Positions 1 to 62,662 of a stretch of 64,000 nucleotides of DNA are shown here, one piece after another. A program made the translations under genes and the position numbers. Each line of letters opens with the position of its first letter. The first letter of the stretch is position 1. Origin of the DNA: a virus; the IMG/VR virus record IMGVR_UViG_3300033146_001635, positions 1 to 64,000 of that record; one strand, given 5' to 3'. Below the pieces are notes generated by a model, which saw only the letters and a list, made by a program, of their open reading frames with translations, did not search any database and was not told the origin of the DNA.

Positions 1-1011
1 ATATATTATAAAGATAAACAAAAATATCTAGAAACAATTGTACCCATAGAAGAAATAGCTCAATTAAAATCAATTAAGAGTACAATTAAATGGAGATATC
101 CAAAAATTAATAAACATCAATTTTCATCAATATTAAAATTCTTTAGGGATGTAAATAATAAACATTCCGCAGAATGTATGGTATTTATTGGATTTGATAG
201 AAAAGCAAAAAAAATGACTATTTTTCCACCGCACAAACAAGTAGTAACAGGTGCATCAATTAAATATGAAAACGCCCCAACACCGGGTATTTCTATTATT
301 GGAACAATTCACTCACATAATACAATGTCTGCCTTTCATTCAGGTATTGATATTAGAGATGAAATGGATTTTGATGGGTTACATATTACCATAGGTAAAT
401 TAACAGAACATGATGAATCGTTTGAAATATCGTGTCAATTTGTTGCAAATGCACATAGACAAGATGTTTCTTATGTAGATGTTATTGATGGTATTATTCG
501 AAAAAATAACGTCAATGCATCACAATATCTTAATAACCCAAAAAATATTGTTCAACAATTATTGGGTAAAACTTTAGGAATTTTCTATAATAATAAAGTG
601 CAGGTAATTTCATCTACACCAAAATTATTTCCTGAAATTTCATGTGATTCATTATCAGATGGATATAATAAAATTATTGATAAATGGCATCAAACTATAA
701 AAGTAAATACACTTACACTTAATAAATCAAAATATGGAAAACATTCAAATCTTTTTGGATATGGTGGATATACAGAAGAATTCTACACTCAACATTTTAA
801 TAAACATAAACACCATCCTATTTTAAATAAAGAAGTTCCATTTGAAAAGAAAGTCAATTTTGATGATGACTTTTTTATTAATGAAAATGGTGAAATTGAA
901 AGATTGGAAATGTTTGATAATGATGAAGATGATTTTGATTTTCTTATTGTTGATGATCAAAATATAGTTGATGAAGATGATGAAATAAATGAGGGTGTAT
1001 TACCATTTTAA
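1..1011 (+). CDS. JAB/MPN metalloprotease (prokaryotic JAB, PRTRC protein A-like), 5'-truncated by window edge
   Basis: Frame is open from base 1 (IYYKDKQKY...HSAECMVF). JAMM motif E...GTIHSHNTMSAFHSGIDIRDE (HxH-x7-S-x2-D), followed by GLHITIG; acidic tail. Confidence 0.85.
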   Translation: MYYKDKQKYLETIVPIEEIAQLKSIKSTIKWRYPKINKHQFSSILKFFRDVNNKHSAECMVFIGFDRKAKKMTIFPPHKQVVTGASIKYENAPTPGISIIGTIHSHNTMSAFHSGIDIRDEMDFDGLHITIGKLTEHDESFEISCQFVANAHRQDVSYVDVIDGIIRKNNVNASQYLNNPKNIVQQLLGKTLGIFYNNKVQVISSTPKLFPEISCDSLSDGYNKIIDKWHQTIKVNTLTLNKSKYGKHSNLFGYGGYTEEFYTQHFNKHKHHPILNKEVPFEKKVNFDDDFFINENGEIERLEMFDNDEDDFDFLIVDDQNIVDEDDEINEGVLPF

Positions 1012-1025
1012 AAGGGAGTTATAAT

Positions 1026-1736
1026 TTGAATAAAGTTAGTATTTATATTATTGGATTGGGGGGAATTGGTTCATGTTTGTGTGAACCAATTTGCCGTTAT
1101 ATTAATTATTTAGAAAATAGGAGAGATTATGACATAATATTAATTGATGGAGATTCCTATGATGATGGGAATCTTGCAAGACAATATTTTGAATGGGATG
1201 AAATAGGAGAAAATAAAGCTGAAGTCCAAGCTAAAAAAATGAAGAATAAATTTGAAGAATTAGATATAAAAACAGAAGCTATATATATCAATTCACAAAA
1301 TATTAAAAATACTATTGTTGATAATAGTATAATATTATCTGGGGTTGATAATCACAAAACCAGAAAAATTATTCAAGATCATTGTAATAAATTATCTAAT
1401 TGTTTATATATATCAGGTGGAAATTTTTACATTGATGGGGATGTAATTATTTTCGCTAAAAAGGATGGTGTACAGCTTTCACCAACTATTTATCAAGATC
1501 ATAAGGATATCGCCAATCCAACTGATCGAACACCTGATGAAATTGGGTGTGATGAATTAGTGGAATCTGTACCACAACTGTTGTTTACAAATGGAACAGT
1601 ATCTATTTGTATGCAATGGGCATTTTACAATTATTATAAATTATTTCAAGAAAATAATATAAGCATTTATAAAAATAAGATTAGTTTTGATATTTGTGAG
1701 ATGAGTGTTATATCTCGCAACAGACCTATTATTTAA
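1026..1736 (+). CDS. ThiF/E1-like ubiquitin-activating adenylyltransferase
   Basis: IIGLGGIG Rossmann motif, LIDGD...NLARQ, GENKAE, GVDNHKTR, candidate catalytic Cys in EIGCDE, PQLLFTN. Confidence 0.88.
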   Translation: MNKVSIYIIGLGGIGSCLCEPICRYINYLENRRDYDIILIDGDSYDDGNLARQYFEWDEIGENKAEVQAKKMKNKFEELDIKTEAIYINSQNIKNTIVDNSIILSGVDNHKTRKIIQDHCNKLSNCLYISGGNFYIDGDVIIFAKKDGVQLSPTIYQDHKDIANPTDRTPDEIGCDELVESVPQLLFTNGTVSICMQWAFYNYYKLFQENNISIYKNKISFDICEMSVISRNRPII

Positions 1737-1786
1737 ATTATTTAAAAAAGATAACTTTAACCACTTTTTTTCTTAGGAGAATTATT

Positions 1787-2371
1787 ATGAGTGTTATTGT
1801 CAATGGGCTCGAAGTTTTCACACTGGCTGAATTAAATGAAAAAACTGCTAAAGAGCTTCGGGCCCTTTGTGCGCAGTATAATCTTTCAAGATATTCAAAA
1901 GCCAATAAAACAACTCTTTTAGAAATGATTCGTAATTATTATGAAGAATTATTAAATAGTGAAACTGCATCTAATCTTAGAATAATTGCTGGAAATCTTG
2001 GTTATACTGGAATTTCTAAAACCACCAAAGCTAATTTAATTGATTTAATTCTTAATCATACTGATGCAGATAATGATGAAATTGATTTAAGTTCTGATGA
2101 AGAAGTTGACATTTCAGGTGGTGAGGAAATTGATATTTCCACACCTGATAAAAAAGATGATAAAATTACTGTAATTTATGGTGCAAAAAATCGTGAAGTT
2201 GACGATGAAGGCAAGAGTGTATGGGATATTCATGCCAATCTTGCTTCTGTTATGGGTCTTCCACAGAAGCCCGATTTTCGAGTCAATGACGCAGTTGTAA
2301 ATAATAACTATATTCCTACTGCGGGTGATTCGATTGAATTTTTCCGGACTGAGTCTGGGAATAAAGGTTAA
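1787..2371 (+). CDS. Ubiquitin-like protein with two N-terminal Rho_N/HeH-like repeats, acidic linker and C-terminal beta-grasp ending SGNKG
   Basis: Repeats LNEKTAKELRALCAQYNLSRYSKANKTTLLEMI and LNSETASNLRIIAGNLGYTGISKTTKANLIDLI. C-terminal ~70 aa KITVIYG...FRVND...AGDSIEFFRTESGNKG. RBS aggag. Confidence 0.75.
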   Translation: MSVIVNGLEVFTLAELNEKTAKELRALCAQYNLSRYSKANKTTLLEMIRNYYEELLNSETASNLRIIAGNLGYTGISKTTKANLIDLILNHTDADNDEIDLSSDEEVDISGGEEIDISTPDKKDDKITVIYGAKNREVDDEGKSVWDIHANLASVMGLPQKPDFRVNDAVVNNNYIPTAGDSIEFFRTESGNKG

Positions 2372-2378
2372 TATATAA

Positions 2379-2434
2379 TATGCCCCCACTATTATATATA
2401 CCTTGTGTGGTACACATATAGTAGTGGGGGCATA
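2379..2434 (+). terminator. Long GC-cored stem-loop after the Ubl gene (terminator or processing/stabilising hairpin)
   Basis: tatgcccccactattatat ... atatagtagtgggggcata; no clean U-tract. Confidence 0.6.
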
Positions 2435-2448
2435 ATTGGTTTATAATT

Positions 2449-2814
2449 ATGATTATTGATGAACTTTTAAAAGAAATTAAAGCAGATGAAAATTTAGAAA
2501 AATTAAAAATCATCTGTGATAAAATGCAATCCGAAGAAGTATATACTGAAGATTTTTTTAATTTGTCTGAGATATTGTATTATCACAAATATGATGAAAA
2601 CACCTTTTTTGAAAAGGTTTTAACTTTGTCTTTTGATATGTTGGCTGAAAATATTTACCATATTGATGAATGGCAAATAAATAAAGCTTTAAAAGATGGC
2701 GATGAAAAAAAATTTAAAAAAATTCAAACATATAGTTTACATACAATATTTGCAAAAAATGTATTAATGAAATACGCACAAATTTTGAAAAAGGCTATTA
2801 ATAATGGGAAGTGA
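2449..2814 (+). CDS. Hypothetical protein
   Basis: 121-aa ORF overlapping the next gene; no recognised motif. Confidence 0.6.
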   Translation: MIIDELLKEIKADENLEKLKIICDKMQSEEVYTEDFFNLSEILYYHKYDENTFFEKVLTLSFDMLAENIYHIDEWQINKALKDGDEKKFKKIQTYSLHTIFAKNVLMKYAQILKKAINNGK

Positions 2815-3643
2815 AATATCAATTATTGGTGTTGGTAGTATAGGCAAAACTTTATTGGATGCCTGTATAAAAACACAAATTTTTGATAAGATAAATATTA
2901 TTGATGGGGATAAAGTTAAAAAACATAACTATGTTTTTAATAATAAATTTTTAAATATACAAAAAGTTTATGCATGTAAGGAATTATATGGAAATAAAAT
3001 AAATCCTATTAATCAATATTTGTCATACGATAATCTAACAGATATAAAAAAATTAACTAATAAATCGCAGTTTATATTTGATTGTAGAGATGTTTTTGAT
3101 AATATAAATTTGCCAAAAACTATTAAATTGTATATAAACGATAGTAGATTGTTTATAAGTTCAATTAGTAAAGAATCTTTTAAATTTGAATTCAAAAGTG
3201 ATTATGTATCATTTACAGATTTAACTAAAATAGAAGATTTGATATTCAAATTTATCAAATATTTCACAAATAAAAATTTGTCAAATCACGATATTATTAT
3301 TAAAAATATATCAAATAAAAATAAAGCTGTTGTTATTAATACGTTAGGAAATATTGATATATTAGATTCTACAAAATATATTTTTTCAAAACAAATTAAA
3401 TCAAAATTAAATAAAATTGTTGAAACACAAAAAATAACTGATTTGAATATAATTGTTGAAGATGGTATTTATATTTTGTGTAATGAAAAATATAATTTGA
3501 ATTTACATCCAATTCATGATATTTTATATAATATTGAAAAAGAGTGTTCCCATTTTCCAGCTGCATTTGTATCCTATAGAATGTCATCTCGACATTCAAA
3601 TGAATTAATTATGACAATTCATAATCAAATAGGAGGCGCATAA
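2804..3643 (+). CDS. Divergent ThiF/E1-like protein with C-terminal ...QIGGA tail (possible fused Ubl)
   Basis: IIGVGSIG, IIDGD, QKVYACKE, FIFDCRD; lacks the NLxRQ motif; ends GG-A. Confidence 0.6.
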   Translation: MGSEISIIGVGSIGKTLLDACIKTQIFDKINIIDGDKVKKHNYVFNNKFLNIQKVYACKELYGNKINPINQYLSYDNLTDIKKLTNKSQFIFDCRDVFDNINLPKTIKLYINDSRLFISSISKESFKFEFKSDYVSFTDLTKIEDLIFKFIKYFTNKNLSNHDIIIKNISNKNKAVVINTLGNIDILDSTKYIFSKQIKSKLNKIVETQKITDLNIIVEDGIYILCNEKYNLNLHPIHDILYNIEKECSHFPAAFVSYRMSSRHSNELIMTIHNQIGGA

Positions 3644-4281
3644 TGTTAAATTGGGAAATGGATCTTGAAAAATTGAATATTAAAATTGTTCCAGTAGATA
3701 ATCCCAATTTAATTCAATTAACAACAGATATTAAACCACGATTTTTACAATACCAAGGTCTTTTAATTCCAATTAATATCAAACAAGAATATGTGTTAAA
3801 AACTAGTATTAATAATGTAGTGTTAGAAATAAAACGATTAAACCAACGATCAATTTTAGTTGATAAAATTTATATTTTAAATAGTATACACCCAAATGCT
3901 ATGACACTACCTTCAAATCCAATATTAGATTTGAATTTTGTTAATAATATTGTTTATCAATATTGTTTCAATAAATTTGTATTTGATGATGAAAATCCTA
4001 TTTCGTTTGTTAATCAAGTTGGGTATTTAATAAAATTTTTAGAAAAATGGAATTATGATGAAGCTTATTGGAGAGATTTTAAAATTATTGAAATTAATAT
4101 TGATGACCATGAAGTATGTATAGATCCAAATAATAACAATAAAATGTATAATAAAAAACAATTAAAGAAAAAATTATCACGCCATTCGAAAATCATTCAC
4201 ACTTCTATTATTTTAAATAAACTTTTAGGTATTCCTAGATTAGATATTGAAGATACCTTAAAAAAAATTTTCTTGGTTTAA
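3643..4281 (+). CDS. Putative E2-like (ubiquitin-conjugating fold) protein
   Basis: HPN motif (SIHPNA) followed by YQYCF and a W-N helix (FLEKWNYDEAY); coupled to the upstream gene via TAATG. Confidence 0.45.
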   Translation: MLNWEMDLEKLNIKIVPVDNPNLIQLTTDIKPRFLQYQGLLIPINIKQEYVLKTSINNVVLEIKRLNQRSILVDKIYILNSIHPNAMTLPSNPILDLNFVNNIVYQYCFNKFVFDDENPISFVNQVGYLIKFLEKWNYDEAYWRDFKIIEINIDDHEVCIDPNNNNKMYNKKQLKKKLSRHSKIIHTSIILNKLLGIPRLDIEDTLKKIFLV

Positions 4282-4287
4282 AAATAA

Positions 4288-4337
4288 AATTACCACCTTT
4301 TGAGATCTTAATAGTGAGATTTCAAAAGGTGGTAATT
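4288..4337 (+). terminator. Stem-loop closing the Ubl locus
   Basis: aattaccaccttttgagatctta / tgagatttcaaaaggtggtaatt. Confidence 0.65.
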
Positions 4338-4339
4338 CC

Positions 4340-4351
4340 AACATATAAATG
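4340..4351 (+). promoter_or_regulatory. AACA-N6-TG promoter motif upstream of the RNAP genes
   Basis: AACA TATAAA TG, identical to the core at 41673 and 61013. Confidence 0.55.
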
Positions 4352-4401
4352 CTACATCAATTCTGTCCTTTCTTTTTCTTTTTTTTCTAGGAGAAAAGTA
4401 T

Positions 4402-7170
4402 ATGCCCCAATTATTATCAAACGATTTTATGAAAGATTTACCAGAGATAACAACCTCAAAATATTTTGAAAAGAAAAAAAGATACCATAAAGATGGGTTA
4501 TTTTCTGAATATATTTTTGGTTTGGAAAATAATTATACATGTCATTGTGGTATTTATCACGGTAAAAGTGCTGAGGGCACAGTATGTAATGAAAAATGTT
4601 GCAATGGATTGCCTATTACACATTCTATTAAAAGACGCAGACAATATGCAAAAATAATATTACCAATTCCTGTTTTAAATAAAACTTTTTTATTACTATT
4701 AAAAAAAGTATTTCCAAACGAGAAAATTGTTGAAGCTATCACAAAAATAATGAAATCTTATAAAAATATTATTTATAAAAAAGATGGCGAATATTTTTTA
4801 AGAGAGCTTGGTGAAAACGAAGATTTAGATAAATTTGAATTGGAATACTATTCATTACATGAAGCTGCTGAAATATATTTAAAAGAAACAATTGAAAAAT
4901 ATAGATTGATAGATCCTGAAAATAAACAATTTAAAATGATTGATGATAATAAGGATAAATTGTTTATTAATGAAATTTTGGTTATACCACCTGATTTCAG
5001 ACCAATATCTCAAATAAATGCTAATACAAAATCTGTTGACCAAATTAATCAATATTATAATCAATTGTTAGTCAGAAAAGAAATTATGGCTAAAATTGAT
5101 ATGGACATTACACAACATATTAAAATTTATCATAATTATTATATACAATTTCAATATATTTATAATGAATTATATGAATATATCATTCAAAAAATTTCTA
5201 AAAAAGAGGGTTTAATCAGAGGGAATATTCTTGGAAAACGAATAGATTTTTCTGGTAGAGCTGTTATTGCACCATCCCCCAATATTAATTTGGATGAATG
5301 TATTCTTCCATATAAAATGGTTTTAGAATTATATAAGATTAAAATCGCAAAATATTTATATAATTCGGGAAAATTTAAATTTTTAAATCAGGCATTGTTA
5401 TGTGTTGAGGAATGTCAATTTTATAATGATCCAAGATTATTAGATATTTGTAAAAAAATAATAGGAGATGATGTTTGTATTTTAAATAGACAACCTAGTT
5501 TACACAAATTAAGTTTTATGGCATTTAAAATAAAAGTTGATATTGTTGATGTTATTTATATTCACCCAATGGTATGTCATGGATTTAATGCTGATTTTGA
5601 TGGGGACGCAATGGCAGTATATTTACCAATCACCCCTGAATCTCAAGAAGAAGCAAAACGACAAGCATTATCTACTAAAATGTTAATCAACCCAACTAAT
5701 ATGCAAATTATTACTTTACCAAGTCAAGAAATGATTTTGGGTTTGTATTTACTGAGTGTTGCAAAAGATGGTAAATATGGACAAAAATGTGAATTTAAAA
5801 ATGTTGAAATGACTTATGGTATGGCATTGATTAATAAATGTTTTCCAAAAGATTATAAAGTAATTACTGAAAAAATAACAACTAAATCTATATCTTCAAT
5901 AATATATGAAATTTTTAATAAACACCCTGATGAAATTGTTGAAGTTTTAGATAAAATTAAAACAACTGGTTTTAAATATGCAACTTTAATTGGGCATACC
6001 ATATCATTAAAAGGTATGACTTCAAATGAAAAATTAAAAAATGAAATTTATTCTAAGAAAACATCACAACAACAATTAAAAGCAATAACAAGTAACAAGG
6101 TTAAAAAATATTTACAAGAAAATTTTATATATACTGATATGATTGAATCTGGTGCAAGAGGGAGTTGGGACCAAGCTAGACAATTAATATTAACAAGAGG
6201 ATTTGTATCTAATTTCAAAGGTACTATTTTACCAATTCCTGTTAAAAATTGTTTAGTTGATGGATTGACACCAACTGAATTTTTCTTATCTTCATATGGA
6301 TGTCGCAAGGGATTGCTAGATATTGCAATCAAAACAGCATCATCAGGTTATTTATTTAGAAAATTTCTTTTCGCTTGTTCTAATTTAATGATTGATTATG
6401 AAAATGAAGATTGTGGTACAACTGATTTATTAGGGGTGTATATAAATGATTTGAAAAAAGCATATTCAGTCAAAGGTCGTTGGTATGCGCCAGATCCTGA
6501 AAAACCAACAGAATTAGAATTAATTACAGATGCAAATTTAAATAACATAATTAATAAACGAATATTTATACGTAGTCCCATTTTCTGCAAAACAAAAAAA
6601 TTGTGTAAAACATGTTATGGTAAATTATATGAATATTTAAATAATAGCCGTTTTGTTGGATCTATTGCTGCTCAATCACTTGGAGAATCAAATACTCAAA
6701 TGGTATTAAGAACTTTCCATACATCTGGTGTTGCTATAACAAAAAATAAAGATGTTACTGAAAATGAAACAGAAAATAAAAAAATGAAACAAGATGATAT
6801 TGTCGGTGCATTAACATTAATATCACAACTTGTTCATAAATTTGATTCATCTGTTACATGCGATATATTGGTTGAACAATTACATCATATTTATTCAGAT
6901 GGAAGATTTTTCATGTTAATACATTTTGAATGTTTAGTTGCACAATTGATGTGGAGTGCTAGAAAAAAATGGAGATTATTGCCAAACCGTGACAAAGTAT
7001 CATACGAATTAAATTCGATAGTTGCGGTTCCATCATTAGAAAGTTGGTTAATGGGATTAGCATTTTCAAATACAAAAAGAGAATTAATCAATGGATTATT
7101 AGAACCTGGATTGTATTCTGGAGGTGTTATTGATAAAATATTATGTGGTGTATCATATAAAGATATTTAA
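4402..7170 (+). CDS. rpoC: Phage multisubunit RNA polymerase, beta'-like catalytic subunit (streamlined, 922 aa)
   Basis: N-terminal Zn ribbon (CHCG..CNEKCC), KEGLIRGNILGKRIDFSGRAVI, NRQPSLH, catalytic NADFDGD, GARG, KTASSGY, AAQSLGE..TQMVLRTFH. Confidence 0.95.
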   Translation: MPQLLSNDFMKDLPEITTSKYFEKKKRYHKDGLFSEYIFGLENNYTCHCGIYHGKSAEGTVCNEKCCNGLPITHSIKRRRQYAKIILPIPVLNKTFLLLLKKVFPNEKIVEAITKIMKSYKNIIYKKDGEYFLRELGENEDLDKFELEYYSLHEAAEIYLKETIEKYRLIDPENKQFKMIDDNKDKLFINEILVIPPDFRPISQINANTKSVDQINQYYNQLLVRKEIMAKIDMDITQHIKIYHNYYIQFQYIYNELYEYIIQKISKKEGLIRGNILGKRIDFSGRAVIAPSPNINLDECILPYKMVLELYKIKIAKYLYNSGKFKFLNQALLCVEECQFYNDPRLLDICKKIIGDDVCILNRQPSLHKLSFMAFKIKVDIVDVIYIHPMVCHGFNADFDGDAMAVYLPITPESQEEAKRQALSTKMLINPTNMQIITLPSQEMILGLYLLSVAKDGKYGQKCEFKNVEMTYGMALINKCFPKDYKVITEKITTKSISSIIYEIFNKHPDEIVEVLDKIKTTGFKYATLIGHTISLKGMTSNEKLKNEIYSKKTSQQQLKAITSNKVKKYLQENFIYTDMIESGARGSWDQARQLILTRGFVSNFKGTILPIPVKNCLVDGLTPTEFFLSSYGCRKGLLDIAIKTASSGYLFRKFLFACSNLMIDYENEDCGTTDLLGVYINDLKKAYSVKGRWYAPDPEKPTELELITDANLNNIINKRIFIRSPIFCKTKKLCKTCYGKLYEYLNNSRFVGSIAAQSLGESNTQMVLRTFHTSGVAITKNKDVTENETENKKMKQDDIVGALTLISQLVHKFDSSVTCDILVEQLHHIYSDGRFFMLIHFECLVAQLMWSARKKWRLLPNRDKVSYELNSIVAVPSLESWLMGLAFSNTKRELINGLLEPGLYSGGVIDKILCGVSYKDI

Positions 7171-7181
7171 AAATATAAGGG

Positions 7182-10100
7182 GTGAAAATGTATCAAAACA
7201 ATCCTGATTTAAAATTACCAGAAATAAATATTTTTAATCTACGAAAATTAGATGATTTAAAATTAATGGACACTATTGAAGAAATTTTAAAAGTGCCTAT
7301 TAAATATGGATTTAAACTAGAAGAATTTTCTAAATCAGATATTAGATATACTGGACATAATCTAGTTAATACAATTAAAGAAAATATTAATGTAAAATTA
7401 TCTAAAAATAATAATATTGTTGATTTATCAATGCAGATTCCAAAACTTGTTGATAATCAATGGTTTGTAATTAACGGTAGAAGAAAAATACCAAGGTTCC
7501 AATTATATGATATTCCGTTGTTGACATTATATTTTAAAAATGAAATTCGTTTTCATAGTAATGTAGGAAGAATTGGTATCTATTGGACGGATAATAAAAA
7601 GAAAGCTCCTTCATTTGTATCAATAGCTAGTTTATCCAAAAAAATTCCTCTATCTATTGTTTTATATGCCTTTTATGGTATAGAAAAAGTAGAAGAACTA
7701 TTTTTAAAAGATGTGGATGAAGATGAATTAAATAAAATTCCTAATGACAAAAAATCAATTCTTCAATTATTACAATTGGATTTAATAGATGCTTATTCAG
7801 AAGTTACACAAGAAATGTATATTGAAGCAATTGGAGATTATTTTTCAAGAAAAAATCCAAAAGAAAAAGGTGAAGATTATATTTTCACTTTAGAAAATAT
7901 TTTGGATATTGATGTAATAGCAAAAAAATTTATTCCACATGATAATATTTTGGATTGTTTATGTGATATTCTTATTAATGAAATACAACTTGATGATACA
8001 GATTATTTAAATAAAAGATTGAGATGTTATGAATATGCTATTATTCAATATTTTATGGAAAATATTTATAAATTATGTTTGACATGTAGAAATTCAAATA
8101 AACCTAAATATAATATTAATAAAACAAAAATTTTAGCAAGTTGCAATGTTTCAGAAATTATTCAATATGATTTTTGTATTAACCCAGTTGAACAATTAAC
8201 TAAATTAACACAGTGTACGTTATCTGGGCCGGGTGGATTTAAAAAGGAATCAATACCTATAAAATTAAGGGATTTAAATCAATCAATGATAGGTAAAATA
8301 TGCCCCGTTGATACACCAGATAGAGAAAACTGTGGTGTTGTACAAAATGTAACACCAGTTGTCAAATTTGATAATAATTTTAAATTTTTAGAAGATAATA
8401 CGAAAGTAATTCCATCATTAGCTGTTTCAATGGTTCCATTTTTAGAACATGATGATACTACTAGATTACAAATGGCAGCTTCTCAAATGAGACAAGCTAT
8501 ATTACTTGATAATTTTCAAGTGCCATTGGTTTGTTCTGGTGTGGAAAAACAATTTACTGAATTTACTAGTTTTATAGAATATGCAAAAGATGATGGTGAA
8601 GTTATATACAAAGATACTAAAAAACTTATTATTGGATATAAAAATGGTGAAATAAAAATAATTGATATAGGTATTAAAAAAATTCTATCTGATAATATGA
8701 GTCATATGACTACCGTATTAAATATCGGTGATAAATTTAATAAAGGTGATATAATTGCATCAAGTTCATTTTGTAATGATGGTCTTATTAAAATAGGTAG
8801 AAATTTTAAAGTTGCATTTATGTCATACTATGGATATAACAACGAAGATGGAATTGTTATTTCTGATAAACTTGTTAAAGATAATTCATTGACATCTGTT
8901 CATTATCTTGATTTATCATTTAATATATCTCCTAATAAAGTATTAGAAAGATTAATTGATTCAGAAGTATATACACCTTTATTTCCAGTTGGAACTAGAT
9001 TAAAAAAGGGTGATGTGTATGCTAGATTAAAAGATATGTACTTATTTGGCTCAATCAAAGATCAAGTTTATGATATTTTTAAAGATAGTCAAGAAAAAAT
9101 AACACCAAAAGATATTTTAATTACAGATATAAAAATATATGCAAATGAATGGCATACAGAATTAAAAGAATATGATGCATGGATTAAATATAATATTCAA
9201 AAACAAATTGATTATGGTAATAAAATTATTAATATTATTAAAGATAATTCAGATGAAGCTACGGCTAAAAAATTAATTACAGAACACCGACTTGATGAAT
9301 TAATGTATCCAAAACAATATAAAAGAAAAGATGAGAAATTAAAAGGTGTTCACATTGAAATGACTGCTGTATATGAAAGACCAATTCAAGTGGGTGATAA
9401 ATTAGCTAATAGACATGGTAATAAGGGTGTTATTACATCTATTATGAGCCATGAAACAATGCCACAGCTACCCAATGGTGAACATGTTGAAATCTGTTTA
9501 AACCCAATGGGCGTGTTATCAAGAATGAATTTGGGGCAATTATTTGAATTTCATTTAAGTGAAGCTTTAATGAAATTCAAAAATATTCTTAAACAAATGT
9601 TAAAAGATAATTGCAAACAAGATGATATTAAAAAATTAATAATGTCATTTATAAAAATGACAGATAAAACTGATACACAATGGATTTCACATAGTTTCAA
9701 AGAATATTTGCCAGAAATTATAGATGAAAAATTTATCGATGATTTGTATTTAATTCAACCACAATTTAACTCTATATCAAAAGATGATATGGATAAAATT
9801 ATGGATTTTGTTGAATGTGAATACGAAATAGAATTATATGATCCTGTATCAAAGGAAAAAATTGAATCTAAAATTGCTGTCGGATATATGTATCTTATGA
9901 AACTGATTCATATTGCAGAAAATAAATTAGCATATAGAAGCATATCTACACTATCTAGAAAAACCATGCAACCCACTGCTGGTAAAAAATTAAATGGTGG
10001 GCAAAGATGTGGTGAAATGGAAAGTGGCTGTGCTGTATCAAATGATATGCCAATAAATCAGACAGAATTTTATACAATTAAATCCGATTGTATAGATGCA

Positions 10101-10238
10101 AAAAATAATTATTTAAAACAAGAATTAAACACAGAATTTACAATGATTAAAGAAAATCCAGATATGGAACCTGAAACAATTAAATTGCTTAGATCTAATT
10201 TAAGAGTTTTGGGTATTGATTTTGATGGAGAATTATAA
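7182..10238 (+). CDS. rpoB: Phage multisubunit RNA polymerase, beta-like subunit (1018 aa)
   Basis: GPGG, ICPVDTPDRENCG, PFLEHDD..R..M...QMRQA, GYNNEDGIVIS, GDKLANRHGNKGV, LNPMGVLSRMNLGQ, GGQRCGEME. Confidence 0.95.
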   Translation: MKMYQNNPDLKLPEINIFNLRKLDDLKLMDTIEEILKVPIKYGFKLEEFSKSDIRYTGHNLVNTIKENINVKLSKNNNIVDLSMQIPKLVDNQWFVINGRRKIPRFQLYDIPLLTLYFKNEIRFHSNVGRIGIYWTDNKKKAPSFVSIASLSKKIPLSIVLYAFYGIEKVEELFLKDVDEDELNKIPNDKKSILQLLQLDLIDAYSEVTQEMYIEAIGDYFSRKNPKEKGEDYIFTLENILDIDVIAKKFIPHDNILDCLCDILINEIQLDDTDYLNKRLRCYEYAIIQYFMENIYKLCLTCRNSNKPKYNINKTKILASCNVSEIIQYDFCINPVEQLTKLTQCTLSGPGGFKKESIPIKLRDLNQSMIGKICPVDTPDRENCGVVQNVTPVVKFDNNFKFLEDNTKVIPSLAVSMVPFLEHDDTTRLQMAASQMRQAILLDNFQVPLVCSGVEKQFTEFTSFIEYAKDDGEVIYKDTKKLIIGYKNGEIKIIDIGIKKILSDNMSHMTTVLNIGDKFNKGDIIASSSFCNDGLIKIGRNFKVAFMSYYGYNNEDGIVISDKLVKDNSLTSVHYLDLSFNISPNKVLERLIDSEVYTPLFPVGTRLKKGDVYARLKDMYLFGSIKDQVYDIFKDSQEKITPKDILITDIKIYANEWHTELKEYDAWIKYNIQKQIDYGNKIINIIKDNSDEATAKKLITEHRLDELMYPKQYKRKDEKLKGVHIEMTAVYERPIQVGDKLANRHGNKGVITSIMSHETMPQLPNGEHVEICLNPMGVLSRMNLGQLFEFHLSEALMKFKNILKQMLKDNCKQDDIKKLIMSFIKMTDKTDTQWISHSFKEYLPEIIDEKFIDDLYLIQPQFNSISKDDMDKIMDFVECEYEIELYDPVSKEKIESKIAVGYMYLMKLIHIAENKLAYRSISTLSRKTMQPTAGKKLNGGQRCGEMESGCAVSNDMPINQTEFYTIKSDCIDAKNNYLKQELNTEFTMIKENPDMEPETIKLLRSNLRVLGIDFDGEL

Positions 10239-11095
10239 TGTCAGCATTACCAGATGTTCAAGAAAATGACGCTCCGATTGTAGTTTTCCCCATCAATCTC
10301 GTTGGAGTTGATAATATTAAATTACCCTTTACATTATTATTACGAGATGCATATTATGATAAACATGAAATCGATTTAGTGGCGAATACATCGATTTCAA
10401 CAAATTTGGTTGCAAACGTGAAAGGCATATCAATGTCTAGATTATTAGAAGCAATCAGACCTTATTTGCATAAAGGGTTAAATTGGGAAATTTTGAAAAA
10501 TTGTTTAGATGCTGTGTGTAATTCAATAGGACAAAATGAAGCAAAAATAAAAATGTCTTTTGATTTGCCTATGATAAAAAAATCTCCATTGAGTAAAAAT
10601 AAATATCCTTTATTTCATTCATGTTATTTTGAAGGATATAAAAAAGAAAATAATTATAAATTTCATCAATTTGTAAAAGTACAATATTCTTCATATTGTC
10701 CATGTTCAGCTGCGTTGTCAAAAGAATTGGATACGCAAGGATTTCCTCATGCGCAAAGATCTTTTGCACACATTCTAGTTGATATGGATTTAAAAAATAA
10801 AAAACAAATATGGTTAGAAGATATTATTGATTTAGTTTTGAATAATATTAAAACACAACCATACCCTATAATCAAGCGAGTTGATGAACAAGAAATAGCA
10901 AAAATTGCATCTGAAAATCCATTATTTGTGGAAGATGCAATTAGAATTTTATCAAAAAAATTATCAGAATTAGATGGCATTATTGATTGGTGTGTTAGAT
11001 GTGTGCATGAAGAATCTATACATTGTCATGATGCAATTGCAGTTAATTGGAAATATGTTGAAAACGGATTTGATTTTCATTCCATAGAACCATAA
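10238..11095 (+). CDS. folE2: GTP cyclohydrolase IB (FolE2/MptA family)
   Basis: LPDVQ, KGISMSRL, SYCPCS, PHAQRS, KRVDE, NPLFVEDAIR, HEESIHCHDA; overlaps the beta stop (TAATG). Confidence 0.92.
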   Translation: MSALPDVQENDAPIVVFPINLVGVDNIKLPFTLLLRDAYYDKHEIDLVANTSISTNLVANVKGISMSRLLEAIRPYLHKGLNWEILKNCLDAVCNSIGQNEAKIKMSFDLPMIKKSPLSKNKYPLFHSCYFEGYKKENNYKFHQFVKVQYSSYCPCSAALSKELDTQGFPHAQRSFAHILVDMDLKNKKQIWLEDIIDLVLNNIKTQPYPIIKRVDEQEIAKIASENPLFVEDAIRILSKKLSELDGIIDWCVRCVHEESIHCHDAIAVNWKYVENGFDFHSIEP

Positions 11096-11104
11096 ACAAG
11101 GAGT

Positions 11105-11857
11105 TTGCTTATGTCAGAATTGATTAATATGCTTGAAGATGAATTATTCGAAGAAGAGTCGATTAATCAAGAAGAAACAACTAGTGAAAATGTTAGTGTT
11201 GAAGAAACGGATACTAACGAAGTAGAAGAAATTATGTTTGAAAACATTGCGTTGACGACTACTGATCTTATTTCGTGGTTAAATTCAAATGAAAATAATT
11301 TACAGTTTTGTAAAAAAATTGATATAACTGGAATAAATGATTTAAATGAAAATATTTTATTACTTAAAAATATTAATTGTGATAAAGAATTTATTCAAAT
11401 GTATAAAAATGCTGACACATATAAAGTATTAGATTTCCCTTGTCATCATATGAAATTATTTGGTGAGAATGGATTTCATATTTTATATAATGTTAACGAG
11501 CAATACAAGATTAAATTTTATGGTACAAAAACAACTGTATATGCTACTATTTGTTTGCAACATGATGAAAAATTATTTCCGATTTATCATTATAAATCAA
11601 ATAAATCCAAACTAGAAAATTATGATGTCGCTAATTTGGTTACAATTGAACATTTTAATAATTTAGTTAATAATAATACAAATTTTAATTTTGAAGATTG
11701 TATACTTCTATATCCACCAATCCACAAAACTGATAATGAAATGACAACCAAATTAGAAGTTTTAGAATGGTTGCATGAAAAAAGTTTAAATGTATTTGAT
11801 GTGCCACATGCTGTGAAAATTGATATAGCTATGTGGCGTATTTTATTTATGCATTAA
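11105..11857 (+). CDS. Hypothetical protein, acidic N-terminus, last gene of the RNAP operon
   Basis: 250-aa ORF with RBS aggag; the ATG at 11111 may be the true start. Confidence 0.7.
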   Translation: MLMSELINMLEDELFEEESINQEETTSENVSVEETDTNEVEEIMFENIALTTTDLISWLNSNENNLQFCKKIDITGINDLNENILLLKNINCDKEFIQMYKNADTYKVLDFPCHHMKLFGENGFHILYNVNEQYKIKFYGTKTTVYATICLQHDEKLFPIYHYKSNKSKLENYDVANLVTIEHFNNLVNNNTNFNFEDCILLYPPIHKTDNEMTTKLEVLEWLHEKSLNVFDVPHAVKIDIAMWRILFMH

Positions 11858-11868
11858 GATTATAAGAG

Positions 11869-11907
11869 AAAGCCGGGGTGATGAAATATTATCACCTCGG
11901 CTTTTTT
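11869..11907 (+). terminator. Rho-independent terminator
   Basis: agccggggtgat/atcacctcggct stem plus T-tract. Confidence 0.8.
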
Positions 11908-11912
11908 GTTTT

Positions 11913-12647
11913 ATGAAAAAATATAATTTTATATATAATAATGTCTATTCATATGACATTCCATCATGTCATTATAATATTTTAAAAAATAGTGGGTATG
12001 ATGTATCAGAAATTAATGAACATGATAAAAAAGAAAGAAATACGCAAATTGGTTTATTAATGAAAGATGATAAAAATTTAACAAAATTTTTAAGAGATAC
12101 TACAAAACAAATAATTGATTTTTATATTGAAAATAATTTTATTAACAAAAATGAAATAATACTTCGACAATATGATGGATTTTATACAACCCGCTATTTA
12201 AATTTACATCTCAAACATAACCTTCCTGCTAAATTAGAACTAAAAAACTTATATGATGTTTTCATATTTTCTATAAATAGAAAAATGTATTTGGGTGTTG
12301 ATTATAATAAAGATTCCTATTTAATTAAGGGTATACCTTTTAAATACCATGAAATAGAAAATTTATATAAAAAAATATTACGCTCAAATTTTTTAAATAT
12401 AAGGAGTATTTTTAATAAATTACAAAAGTTAAAATTATATATTTTAAATTCAGATAAAATTCAACTATATGCTATTCCTGTAGATGATGACAAAACAGAA
12501 TTTAAAATATTTTTTAAAGAAATTGGGGAATTAATAATTTCAAAACAAAGTTTAAAATTAATTGATCCAAGTGAAATTGATAAATACAAATATTTTCAAA
12601 TATATTTAGAACCTTTTTTTAAATCAATTGTTTATCATACTTTATAA
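11913..12647 (+). CDS. Short, divergent family-B DNA polymerase palm-like protein
   Basis: Motif A-like YDIPSCHYNIL, motif C-like RQYDGF, later IKG and YFQIYLEPF. Confidence 0.5.
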   Translation: MKKYNFIYNNVYSYDIPSCHYNILKNSGYDVSEINEHDKKERNTQIGLLMKDDKNLTKFLRDTTKQIIDFYIENNFINKNEIILRQYDGFYTTRYLNLHLKHNLPAKLELKNLYDVFIFSINRKMYLGVDYNKDSYLIKGIPFKYHEIENLYKKILRSNFLNIRSIFNKLQKLKLYILNSDKIQLYAIPVDDDKTEFKIFFKEIGELIISKQSLKLIDPSEIDKYKYFQIYLEPFFKSIVYHTL

Positions 12648-15292: not shown

Positions 15293-15337
15293 AATCTCCC
15301 ATAAATTATTTATTTAATTTATGGGAGATTTTTTTTT
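15293..15337 (+). terminator. Rho-independent terminator
   Basis: aatctcccataaatta/taatttatgggagatt plus T-run. Confidence 0.8.
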
Positions 15338-36941: not shown

Positions 36942-36981
36942 ATATGTGACCCCATATTAAAAATAATATGGGGCCACATAT
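36942..36981 (-). terminator. Stem-loop between paralogs
   Basis: atatgtgaccccatatt/aatatggggccacatat. Confidence 0.6.
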
Positions 36982-47047: not shown

Positions 47048-47545
47048 ATGAATATTTTAGAAGATTATGAAATTATATCAGAAGTAGAATTACAATATTT
47101 TTTAAAAGATTATAGTGCTGTAATTAAACTAGTTAAACCAGTTGCTATAAAACAAAATATAAAATATTTTTCTACTAATGATATTAAAACAATCCAAAAT
47201 AAAATTGAAGGGAGTGTTAAACCACCTCTTATTAATAAAGAGGATCTTAAAAATATATATCGGGAATTAGCAAAACCACAATACAACTTCAAGTTTAAAA
47301 ATTTTAATTTAAAAAAAGTACGTCGAAAAGCAATTCAATATTTAAATAAAAGAACAAATATAAAAAGAAAAAATGAAGGAATTATACGAACATTTGTTAT
47401 TAATAGAATTCGTCATAAGTATACAAATTATGATGAATTAGTAACTCTTATATCAAAAAATAATAATATTAATGCTATTTTAAAAAATGAAATGATAAAA
47501 ATTTTAAAAAAAAGAATCAATACATATATAACAAGGCAATTATAA
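47048..47545 (+). CDS. Hypothetical basic protein
   Basis: 165 aa; INRIRHKYTNYDEL. Confidence 0.6.
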   Translation: MNILEDYEIISEVELQYFLKDYSAVIKLVKPVAIKQNIKYFSTNDIKTIQNKIEGSVKPPLINKEDLKNIYRELAKPQYNFKFKNFNLKKVRRKAIQYLNKRTNIKRKNEGIIRTFVINRIRHKYTNYDELVTLISKNNNINAILKNEMIKILKKRINTYITRQL

Positions 47546-47595
47546 AAATTTCCTCTCTATATTACATTGAAAAAAATATAGAGAGGAAATTTTTT
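47544..47595. terminator. Bidirectional terminator between convergent genes
   Basis: aaaaatttcctctctatatt/aatatagagaggaaattttt. Confidence 0.8.
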
Positions 47596-50535: not shown

Positions 50536-50572
50536 AAGGGGTTGGGTTAAATAAAAATTAACCCAACCCCTT
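50536..50572 (-). terminator. Stem-loop
   Basis: aaggggttgggttaa/ttaacccaacccctt. Confidence 0.65.
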
Positions 50573-54020: not shown

Positions 54021-54067
54021 AAAAAAAACCCCGACCATATACAATCTTAATAGTATATGGTCGGGGT
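54021..54067 (-). terminator. Rho-independent terminator ending the GAF operon
   Basis: accccgaccatatac/gtatatggtcggggt with A8 (U-tract on the minus strand). Confidence 0.8.
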
Positions 54068-62594: not shown

Positions 62595-62662
62595 GTATTG
62601 TTTACCACCAGAAATCTCCCCATTATTCTATTAATTTAGAATGATGGGGAGATTTTCTTTTT
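62586..62662 (+). terminator. Two adjacent hairpins plus T-tract
   Basis: tggtggtaa/ttaccacca, then aaatctccccattattcta/tagaatgatggggagattt. Confidence 0.7.

Follow-up and report, generated by a model that had tools for sequence, protein, structure and literature searches.

A HeH-headed ubiquitin-like protein as candidate modifier of a class-6d/PRTRC-like conjugation cassette in jumbo phages

We analyzed the first 64 kb of a 94.6-kb viral contig from IMG/VR (record IMGVR_UViG_3300033146_001635; this whole stretch of 64,000 nucleotides is called the window) and examined a gene at 1787..2371 on the plus strand, which encodes a protein of 194 amino acids (aa) with two Rho_N/HeH repeats (the head), an acidic linker and a C-terminal ubiquitin-like (Ubl) domain. 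The gene follows genes for a JAB peptidase and an E1-like enzyme, and we estimate at about 0.55 the probability that its product serves as modifier (tag) in a ubiquitin-like conjugation system that the phage encodes and that resembles operon class 6d, the PRTRC cassette. Among the loci compared, an HeH head joined to a Ubl directly after E1 is a design conserved in a deep clade of jumbo phages; the head is restricted to phage forms in these loci, and is old and conserved. The completeness of the contig was estimated at ∼26% (CheckV), so the phage genome is probably ∼350 kb. The GC content is ∼26% and no tRNA genes were found. The contig end falls inside the first gene (JAB), and the region upstream of JAB lies beyond the contig.

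The open reading frame (ORF) begins with ATG, preceded by AGGAG 8 nt upstream. Two Rho_N/HeH-like repeats had been recognized in its translation by an earlier note made from the letters of the window, and comparison with profiles of the Rho_N, SAP, and HeH families confirmed them: the whole protein matches Rho_N (PF07498) at 34.1 bits in two stretches, above the Pfam gathering cut-off of 24.9. Scored alone against the same profile, repeat 1 (residues 15-49, 1829..1933, plus strand) gave 24.8 bits and repeat 2 (residues 56-90, 1952..2056, plus strand), which matches the single HeH of one-repeat forms, gave 14 bits. The two stretches are repeats of each other, with an alignment score of 60 (BLOSUM62) vs. 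19 ± 3.9 for shuffled sequences (z ∼10; 0 of 2000 shuffles reached an equal score). In the AlphaFold2 (AF2) model, to which the pLDDT values refer, helices 21-30 and 41-57, then 61-70 and 81-89, form HeH folds at pLDDT 84-90. The top structural match of this model in BFVD was a Marseillevirus "Rho termination factor," and viral ubiquitins were also found there. Among solved structures the family profile matches the Rho N-terminus (3l0o) and the SAP domain of Ku70 (1jjr), and the fusion relatives reach 55 bits for Rho_N, 35 bits for SAP, and 27 bits for HeH.

Eight further two-repeat proteins were found in metagenomes, making nine with the one of the window. The alignment used below comprises 16 head-plus-Ubl proteins, with two-repeat and one-repeat forms among them. 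T60, L64, G75, K78, and K81 of the head, all in repeat 2, are invariant in this alignment, and K78 and K81 are positioned in the Rho_N/SAP loop-helix. Repeat 1 is missing from the one-repeat phage forms, which makes it probable that repeat 1 arose by duplication within the subclade of the window. By this comparison repeat 2 is the ancestral head, and the presence of an additional repeat together with the acidic linker is a derived trait of that subclade. In PHROGs, the same module is found at the termini of DNA-acting phage proteins (endonuclease VII, Arc-like repressor, and DNA methyltransferase). The window protein is like the Rho_N/SAP/HeH-LEM modules (PF07498, PF02037, and PF12949) in that it carries two Rho_N copies and has relatives matching SAP and HeH. 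It is unlike the usual carriers of these modules (helicase, nuclease, and repressor) in that the modules are located on a putatively conjugatable Ubl, and the two-repeat forms are acidic overall.

An acidic linker between head and Ubl, also seen in the earlier note, was found at residues 93-123 (2063..2155, plus strand; pLDDT <50): 14 of the 32 residues at 93-124 are Asp or Glu, and the stretch is predicted to be disordered. A hydrophobic-Asp-Leu/Ile-Ser/Thr-Ser/Gly motif (I/V-D-L/I-S/T-S/G) at residues 105-111 (2099-2119) is conserved while the rest of the linker is variable, and the motif might serve docking or beta-strand addition. Its D108 is invariant in all nine two-repeat proteins. The window protein has an isoelectric point (pI) of 4.5 and a net charge of -14, and the nine two-repeat proteins are all acidic (pI 4.4-4.8, net charge -9 to -18), vs. 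the one-repeat phage forms, six of seven of which are basic (pI 8.4-9.7) with a K/R-rich second helix. In the two-repeat subclade the acidic linker may modulate the predicted nucleic-acid binding of the head.

The beta-grasp Ubl occupies residues 124-194 (2156..2368, plus strand) and terminates in the invariant G-x-K-G, with Gly194 as the last codon (2366-2368). As the earlier note had stated, the Ubl lies at the free C-terminus: residues 126-186 are modeled as beta-beta-alpha-beta-beta at pLDDT 81-88 (∼87 for the domain), and G-N-K-G directly precedes the stop codon. The top PDB matches from Foldseek were all Ubl proteins (NEDD8, SUMO, Caldiarchaeum ubiquitin, and MoaD), with TM-scores of 0.58-0.68 by target, probability ∼1, and E ∼1e-2. 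A profile search with the Ubl domain alone against 1.84 billion representative proteins gave 102 matches. The informative ones include proteins of 190-205 aa built like that of the window, in which two Rho_N repeats precede an acidic linker and a Ubl; stand-alone Ubls, 68-77 aa long; and tandem poly-Ubls of two to four units. Of 19 members of the family, 13 have a match to Pfam ThiS (best E 1e-18) and seven to TGS, and the poly-Ubl (Prok_Ub/PRTRC_C) encoded by Bacillus phages is matched by the family profile with E 2e-6 to 2e-8. Long repeat proteins (up to 3809 aa) were rejected as relatives since they match only profile positions 21-55, a partial motif. LysM had been suspected in them, and Pfam assigned T9SS-secreted/subtilase matches, an unnamed repeat and no beta-grasp family. 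The unnamed repeat, found in P0004, P0006, P0008, P0009 and others, shares a motif with the helix/strand-3 region of the Ubl. Two family members, P0056 and P0061, have an N-terminal Ubl followed by ∼180 residues past a G-H-K motif; if cut by JAB, they would be Ubl-cargo precursor fusions.

The earlier note had proposed conjugation through the terminal Gly, and this residue is invariant in all 16 aligned head-plus-Ubl proteins as well as in the stand-alone and tandem relatives. G-x-K-G terminates the stand-alone Ubls and every unit of the tandem forms. The Ubl residues invariant in the 16 aligned proteins are Ala133, Asn167, Asp181, Phe185, Gly191, Lys193, and Gly194. Short tails follow G-x-K-G in four of the 16. 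In 51 viral loci (L019-L069, IMG/VR contigs retrieved with the one-repeat alignment, the largest of 248 kb), 30 Ubls terminate exactly at G-x-K-G and the remainder carry tails of 1-5 residues, which implies C-terminal trimming, probably obligatory in part of the clade. These tails are a single Cys in 18 loci (G-x-K-G-C), DRKGC in two, and R in one.

The two genes upstream of the Ubl gene encode relatives of the PRTRC enzymes, as judged by the NCBIfam models TIGR03735 (PRTRC_A), TIGR03736 (PRTRC_ThiF), TIGR03737 (PRTRC_B), and TIGR03738 (PRTRC_C). The JAB/JAMM metallopeptidase (1..1011, plus strand) is visible over 336 aa with its 5' end cut by the contig end; homologs are 435-598 aa long. It matches Pfam Prok-JAB (E 1e-4), the metal-site motif HxHx7SxxD is intact in the translation, and the best NCBIfam match is PRTRC_A at 25.6 bits, below the cut-off of 101.8. 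The JAB genes that precede E1 in two bacterial loci and eight viral loci (L006, L007, and L011-L018, described below) share 35-40% identity with it. The E1-like adenylating enzyme of the ThiF family (1026..1736, plus strand; 236 aa) matches Pfam ThiF at 67.5 bits, and its best NCBIfam match is PRTRC_ThiF (positions 10-226 of 245 aligned), whose 63.7 bits fall short of the cut-off of 144.75. The motifs GxGxxG, DGD, RQ, and VDNH and the residue C175 are invariant in an alignment of three orthologs. PADLOC matched the E1 to Cap2 E1-E2 and to BilD (BilD 19 bits, E 1e-4), and gave no matches to BilA, BilB, or BilC.

The order of these genes is kept in related loci. In the closest relatives, on metagenome Ga0256913 contigs, E1 is followed by a two-repeat Ubl, a 121-aa protein, an E1-like protein ending in GGA, and a protein with an HPN motif. 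The eight viral loci L011-L018, which are IMG/VR loci retrieved with the E1 profile, encode in order an ∼880-aa protein with a weak Prok-E2_D match, JAB, E1, a one-HeH Ubl protein of 149-168 aa, often an E1-like protein, and RNA polymerase (RNAP) beta' and beta. All of the 51 viral loci L019-L069 carry a Ubl ORF, with HeH in the same ORF in 49 (two matches begin at the contig end), and an E1 ORF ends just upstream of the Ubl ORF in 47. Two bacterial loci from metagenome-assembled genomes (L006 and L007) keep the order JAB, E1 (40% identical to that of the window), Ubl, but there the Ubl is bare and 70 aa long. A headless related cassette is present in cultured Bacillus jumbo phages, with a poly-Ubl (Prok_Ub/PRTRC_C), a Prok-E2_D/PRTRC_B-like protein, a PRTRC_A-like JAB, and PRTRC_ThiF. 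In Bacillus phage vB_BauM_KLEB27-3, gp199 (L004, 1-449), annotated as hypothetical, is a tandem poly-Ubl whose units end in A-G-V-K-G (Prok_Ub E 4e-14); downstream of it are encoded a protein with weak likeness to Prok-E2_D, a JAB resembling PRTRC_A, and ThiF. Relatives among the viral contigs surfaced only with the profile of E1 and with the one-repeat alignment; no match came from tblastn searches of 50,697 GenBank phage records with the window protein and P0037, and scans of viral contigs with the two-repeat proteins returned nothing. In the papers searched we found no description of a Rho_N/HeH-Ubl fusion or of these phage JAB/ThiF/Ubl cassettes.

Downstream of the Ubl gene lies a second unit of three genes on the plus strand. 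The 121-aa protein (2449..2814) has a counterpart of 48% identity, equally placed, in the closest relative (L002), and no family scored above threshold for it in the library scans. The next gene (2804..3643) encodes a second E1-like protein of 279 aa with a ThiF-fold N-terminal part (ThiF 23.2 bits, below threshold) and a C-terminal extension. Its ESM Atlas model resembles ThiF and ThiF+ThiS fusion clusters (TM 0.53-0.58), a PDB sequence search with it was empty, and homologs occur in L002, L012, L013, L016, and L017. It ends in I-G-G-A, and the L002 counterpart (882-1703) in T-G-G-A. The last ∼90 residues, beyond the ThiF fold, are like the ThiS part of the Atlas ThiF+ThiS fusions, and this part could be a second capped Ubl or an E2-recruiting ubiquitin-fold domain; the Ubl profile did not detect it.

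The third gene (3643..4281) overlaps the E1-like gene by one base (TAATG, whose second A belongs to both the TAA stop and the ATG start) and encodes a 212-aa protein with an HPN motif and Cys108, probably of E2 (UBC) fold. In VIA-align, most rows for residues 1-146 were E2 or E2-fold proteins (UEV and Atg10) at Z 4-5.6, obtained from a weak AF2 model (pLDDT 55). The best structural match was the Bub E2, BubB (9eav_D, Z 5.6), and the Cap2 E2 domain, UBE2E1, UbcH5c, and many other UBC proteins were also matched. H83, P84, N85, and C108 are conserved with the single homolog in L002. The protein found no homolog besides itself in a set of 5.8 billion proteins and no PDB sequence match, and its ESM Atlas model was uninformative.

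Beyond this unit are the phage RNAP genes, beta' at 4402..7170 and beta at 7182..10238 (plus strand), which are conserved neighbors of the cassette: each of the eight loci L011-L018 has a beta' homolog of 43-46% identity, located 1.5-2.6 kb downstream from its Ubl gene. No ParB gene was found among the genes in 1..12000 or in the related loci, with the region upstream of JAB lying outside the contig.

If the gene encodes a conjugated tag, the adjacent E1 would adenylate Gly194 and accept the tag on Cys175 as a thioester, and an E2 would hand it to lysines of target proteins. The candidate E2 is the 212-aa protein or the Prok-E2_D-like protein encoded upstream of JAB in relatives, a place that here would fall beyond the contig end. 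JAB would trim the tailed precursors and/or remove the tag. With the Ubl at the C-terminus, the head would be retained on the tag after conjugation and each modified protein would gain a Rho_N/SAP/HeH-type module, whose likeliest use would be to recruit the tag, or the conjugates carrying it, either to nucleic acid or to a partner bound to the chromosome of phage or host. A stem-loop directly after the gene would terminate or stabilize the JAB-E1-Ubl transcript. The basic one-repeat forms and the placement of the module in PHROGs fit such recruitment to nucleic acid. A further-reaching scheme of tag and tether, by which the jumbo-phage clade would covalently couple chosen proteins to a chromosome-binding module via the HeH-headed tag, we regard as unlikely. 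It may be used to load phage proteins on the genome beside the RNAP genes (for packaging, injection, or transcription) or to drag host proteins onto or off DNA, and the acidic two-repeat version may then be a regulated or DNA-mimicking derivative.

Several points weigh against the gene being a nucleic-acid-directed conjugation tag. The Ubl of the window matched none of the curated Ubl models in Pfam/NCBIfam (ThiS, Prok_Ub, and PRTRC_C), so that its assignment as Ubl at the sequence level is transitive, via the relatives. The E2 assignment of the 212-aa protein is probable, resting on a low-confidence model and a single detectable homolog. The adjacency to RNAP genes may be plain phage synteny. 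The acidity of all two-repeat forms, atypical for a nucleic-acid binder, argues against a simple DNA tether. Trios of JAB, E1, and Ubl also occur in sulfur-transfer pathways (PMC1779556).

One alternative is a sulfur carrier, a Ubl that would be thiocarboxylated by E1 (like ThiS, MoaD, TtuB, and Urm1), with the head delivering the sulfur to nucleic acid and JAB only maturing the C-terminus. The ThiS matches of the relatives (best E 1e-18) agree with this role, as do the JAB, E1, and ThiS-like trios of known sulfur-transfer operons (PMC1779556), and a predicted nucleic-acid-binding head would be sensible for thiolation of tRNA, RNA, or DNA. However, no rhodanese or PP-loop thiolase was found in the 94.6-kb contig (only ∼26% of the genome), the E1 has no rhodanese domain, and probable E2-fold proteins occur alongside the cassette in the window and in related loci. 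The terminus is K-G vs. the G-G of sulfur carriers, the family includes tandem poly-Ubl forms, and the nearest curated families are those of PRTRC/class 6d, which are predicted to conjugate. We concluded that a sulfur carrier is less likely than a conjugation tag, and indeed quite improbable. It is similarly doubtful that the cassette serves counter-defense by disrupting host Ubl immunity (Bil and type II CBASS), with JAB stripping host tags and the phage Ubl acting as competitor or decoy. The E1 resembles Cap2 and BilD in PADLOC, homologs of host defense components are common in phages, and bacterial Ubl systems tag phage tail proteins (PMC11601596). But a decoy needs neither its own E1 and E2-like proteins nor an invariant terminal Gly and precursor tails, and the full cassette is conserved in >50 phage contigs.

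Another explanation keeps the conjugated tag and changes the role of the head, in that the HeH repeats and the linker motif would dock a protein (for example, the second E1-like/E2-like pair, the phage RNAP, or a host protein) or serve as a DNA-mimicking decoy. HeH/LEM-class folds also mediate protein binding. The acidity of the two-repeat forms and the conserved linker motif make protein docking, DNA mimicry, or autoinhibition possible for head plus linker: all two-repeat forms have a pI of 4.4-4.8, the I-D-L-S-S-type motif has its invariant Asp, and RNAP genes are conserved neighbors. Against this, six of the seven one-repeat phage forms are basic with a K/R-rich second helix, Lys78 and Lys81 in the Rho_N/SAP loop-helix are invariant, and PHROGs places the module at the ends of endonuclease VII, an Arc-like repressor, and a DNA methyltransferase. 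We consider a head that does not bind nucleic acid unlikely, though less so than the sulfur carrier or the decoy.

A comparison with known systems places the cassette nearest to class 6d. Operon class 6d of Iyer, Burroughs and Aravind 2006 is the PRTRC cassette, and it was predicted to conjugate (PMC1779556). Like that cassette, the window has separate adjacent JAB and E1 genes, a small beta-grasp protein whose C-terminal Gly is conserved, and a probable E2-like protein in which a Cys is conserved; for its JAB and E1, NCBIfam gives PRTRC_A and PRTRC_ThiF as best matches. Unlike PRTRC, the scores are below the curated cut-offs, which makes JAB and E1 relatives and not members; the cassette is phage-encoded with no ParB gene seen among the genes covered, whereas PRTRC is found on plasmids and integrative and conjugative elements; and the Ubl carries one or two N-terminal HeH repeats and is located downstream of E1, followed by a second E1-like/E2-like pair. 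We found no published function for PRTRC in the literature.

The component set of Ubl, E1, probable E2, and peptidase is shared with Bil (BilABCD) and Bub, and the best structural match of the 212-aa protein is the Bub E2. In contrast to these systems, the E1 of the window is a minimal 236-aa single adenylation domain and not IAD-AAD-CYS, the window has no DUF6527 protease, and the genes are carried by a phage. Some Bil Ubls have N-terminal modules that were proposed to mislocalize or aggregate targets (PMC10557695). The N-terminal extensions of some Bil and Bub Ubls include phase-separating or coiled-coil domains, or "a variety of N-terminal domains," and a Rho_N/HeH head is absent from these accounts (PMC10557695, PMC11601596). 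The earlier note had suggested that the tag would carry its own function, and a tag with a functional N-terminal module has a precedent in these bacterial Bil and Bub Ubls (PMC10557695, PMC11601596). We found no homology of the window protein to ISG15, FAT10, or SDE2 beyond common folds. In ISG15 and FAT10 (tandem Ubls), the conjugating Ubl is the C-terminal one and an N-terminal module travels with it. SDE2 has both a Ubl and a SAP domain, with the Ubl N-terminal and cleaved off.

Ubl conjugation in bacteria has been studied mainly as anti-phage host defense (Bil, type II CBASS, and Bub), and here the machinery is phage-owned. The phage tag would not be a bare beta-grasp, as the conserved HeH/Rho_N head must remain after conjugation, and the head predicts the destination of the conjugates so that function is directly testable. 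The invariant Lys at -2 means that tryptic digestion should leave just one Gly on each modified lysine, a remnant searchable by mass spectrometry. The basic one-repeat and acidic two-repeat forms constitute a natural experiment on head function, and the headless cassette of the cultured Bacillus jumbo phages is an entry point for genetics. If the tag-and-tether scheme is true, it would amount to virus-run ubiquitin-style chemistry in bacteria.

A strong hairpin 3' of the gene, noticed in the earlier note, was recovered at 2380..2433 (plus strand) right after the Ubl stop codon, with a stem of ∼22 bp and -36.3 kcal/mol (z = -4.9 vs. dinucleotide shuffles). No canonical intrinsic terminator was called at 2380-2433, as there is no T-run directly past the stem. 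All of ten other loci checked singly, both bacterial loci included, have a strong GC-rich stem-loop of differing sequence past the Ubl stop, and a T-run is present at several of them. In the 51 viral loci the 90 nt past the stop are more stable than shuffles, with z < -2 in 51/51 and z < -3 in 43/51. The position of the stem-loop is thus kept in 61 related loci, for which the simplest reading is an operon terminator, and the element is probably a terminator or 3'-end stabilizer of the (E2-)JAB-E1-Ubl unit. The earlier idea that the hairpin would favor the Ubl over downstream genes is upheld as far as it separates the Ubl from them; it says nothing on the amount of Ubl relative to the upstream enzymes. 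The 121-aa/E1-like/E2-like unit is likewise closed by a stem-loop at 4288..4337 (plus strand), an inverted repeat with 21-nt arms that are 95% complementary. Other GC-rich, perfect or near-perfect stem-loops in intergenic gaps of the window are located at 11866-11907, 15293-15330, 36942-36981, 47544-47594, 50536-50572, 54028-54067, and 62612-62655. Intergenic stem-loops are common in this AT-rich phage and are probably general transcript-end signals.

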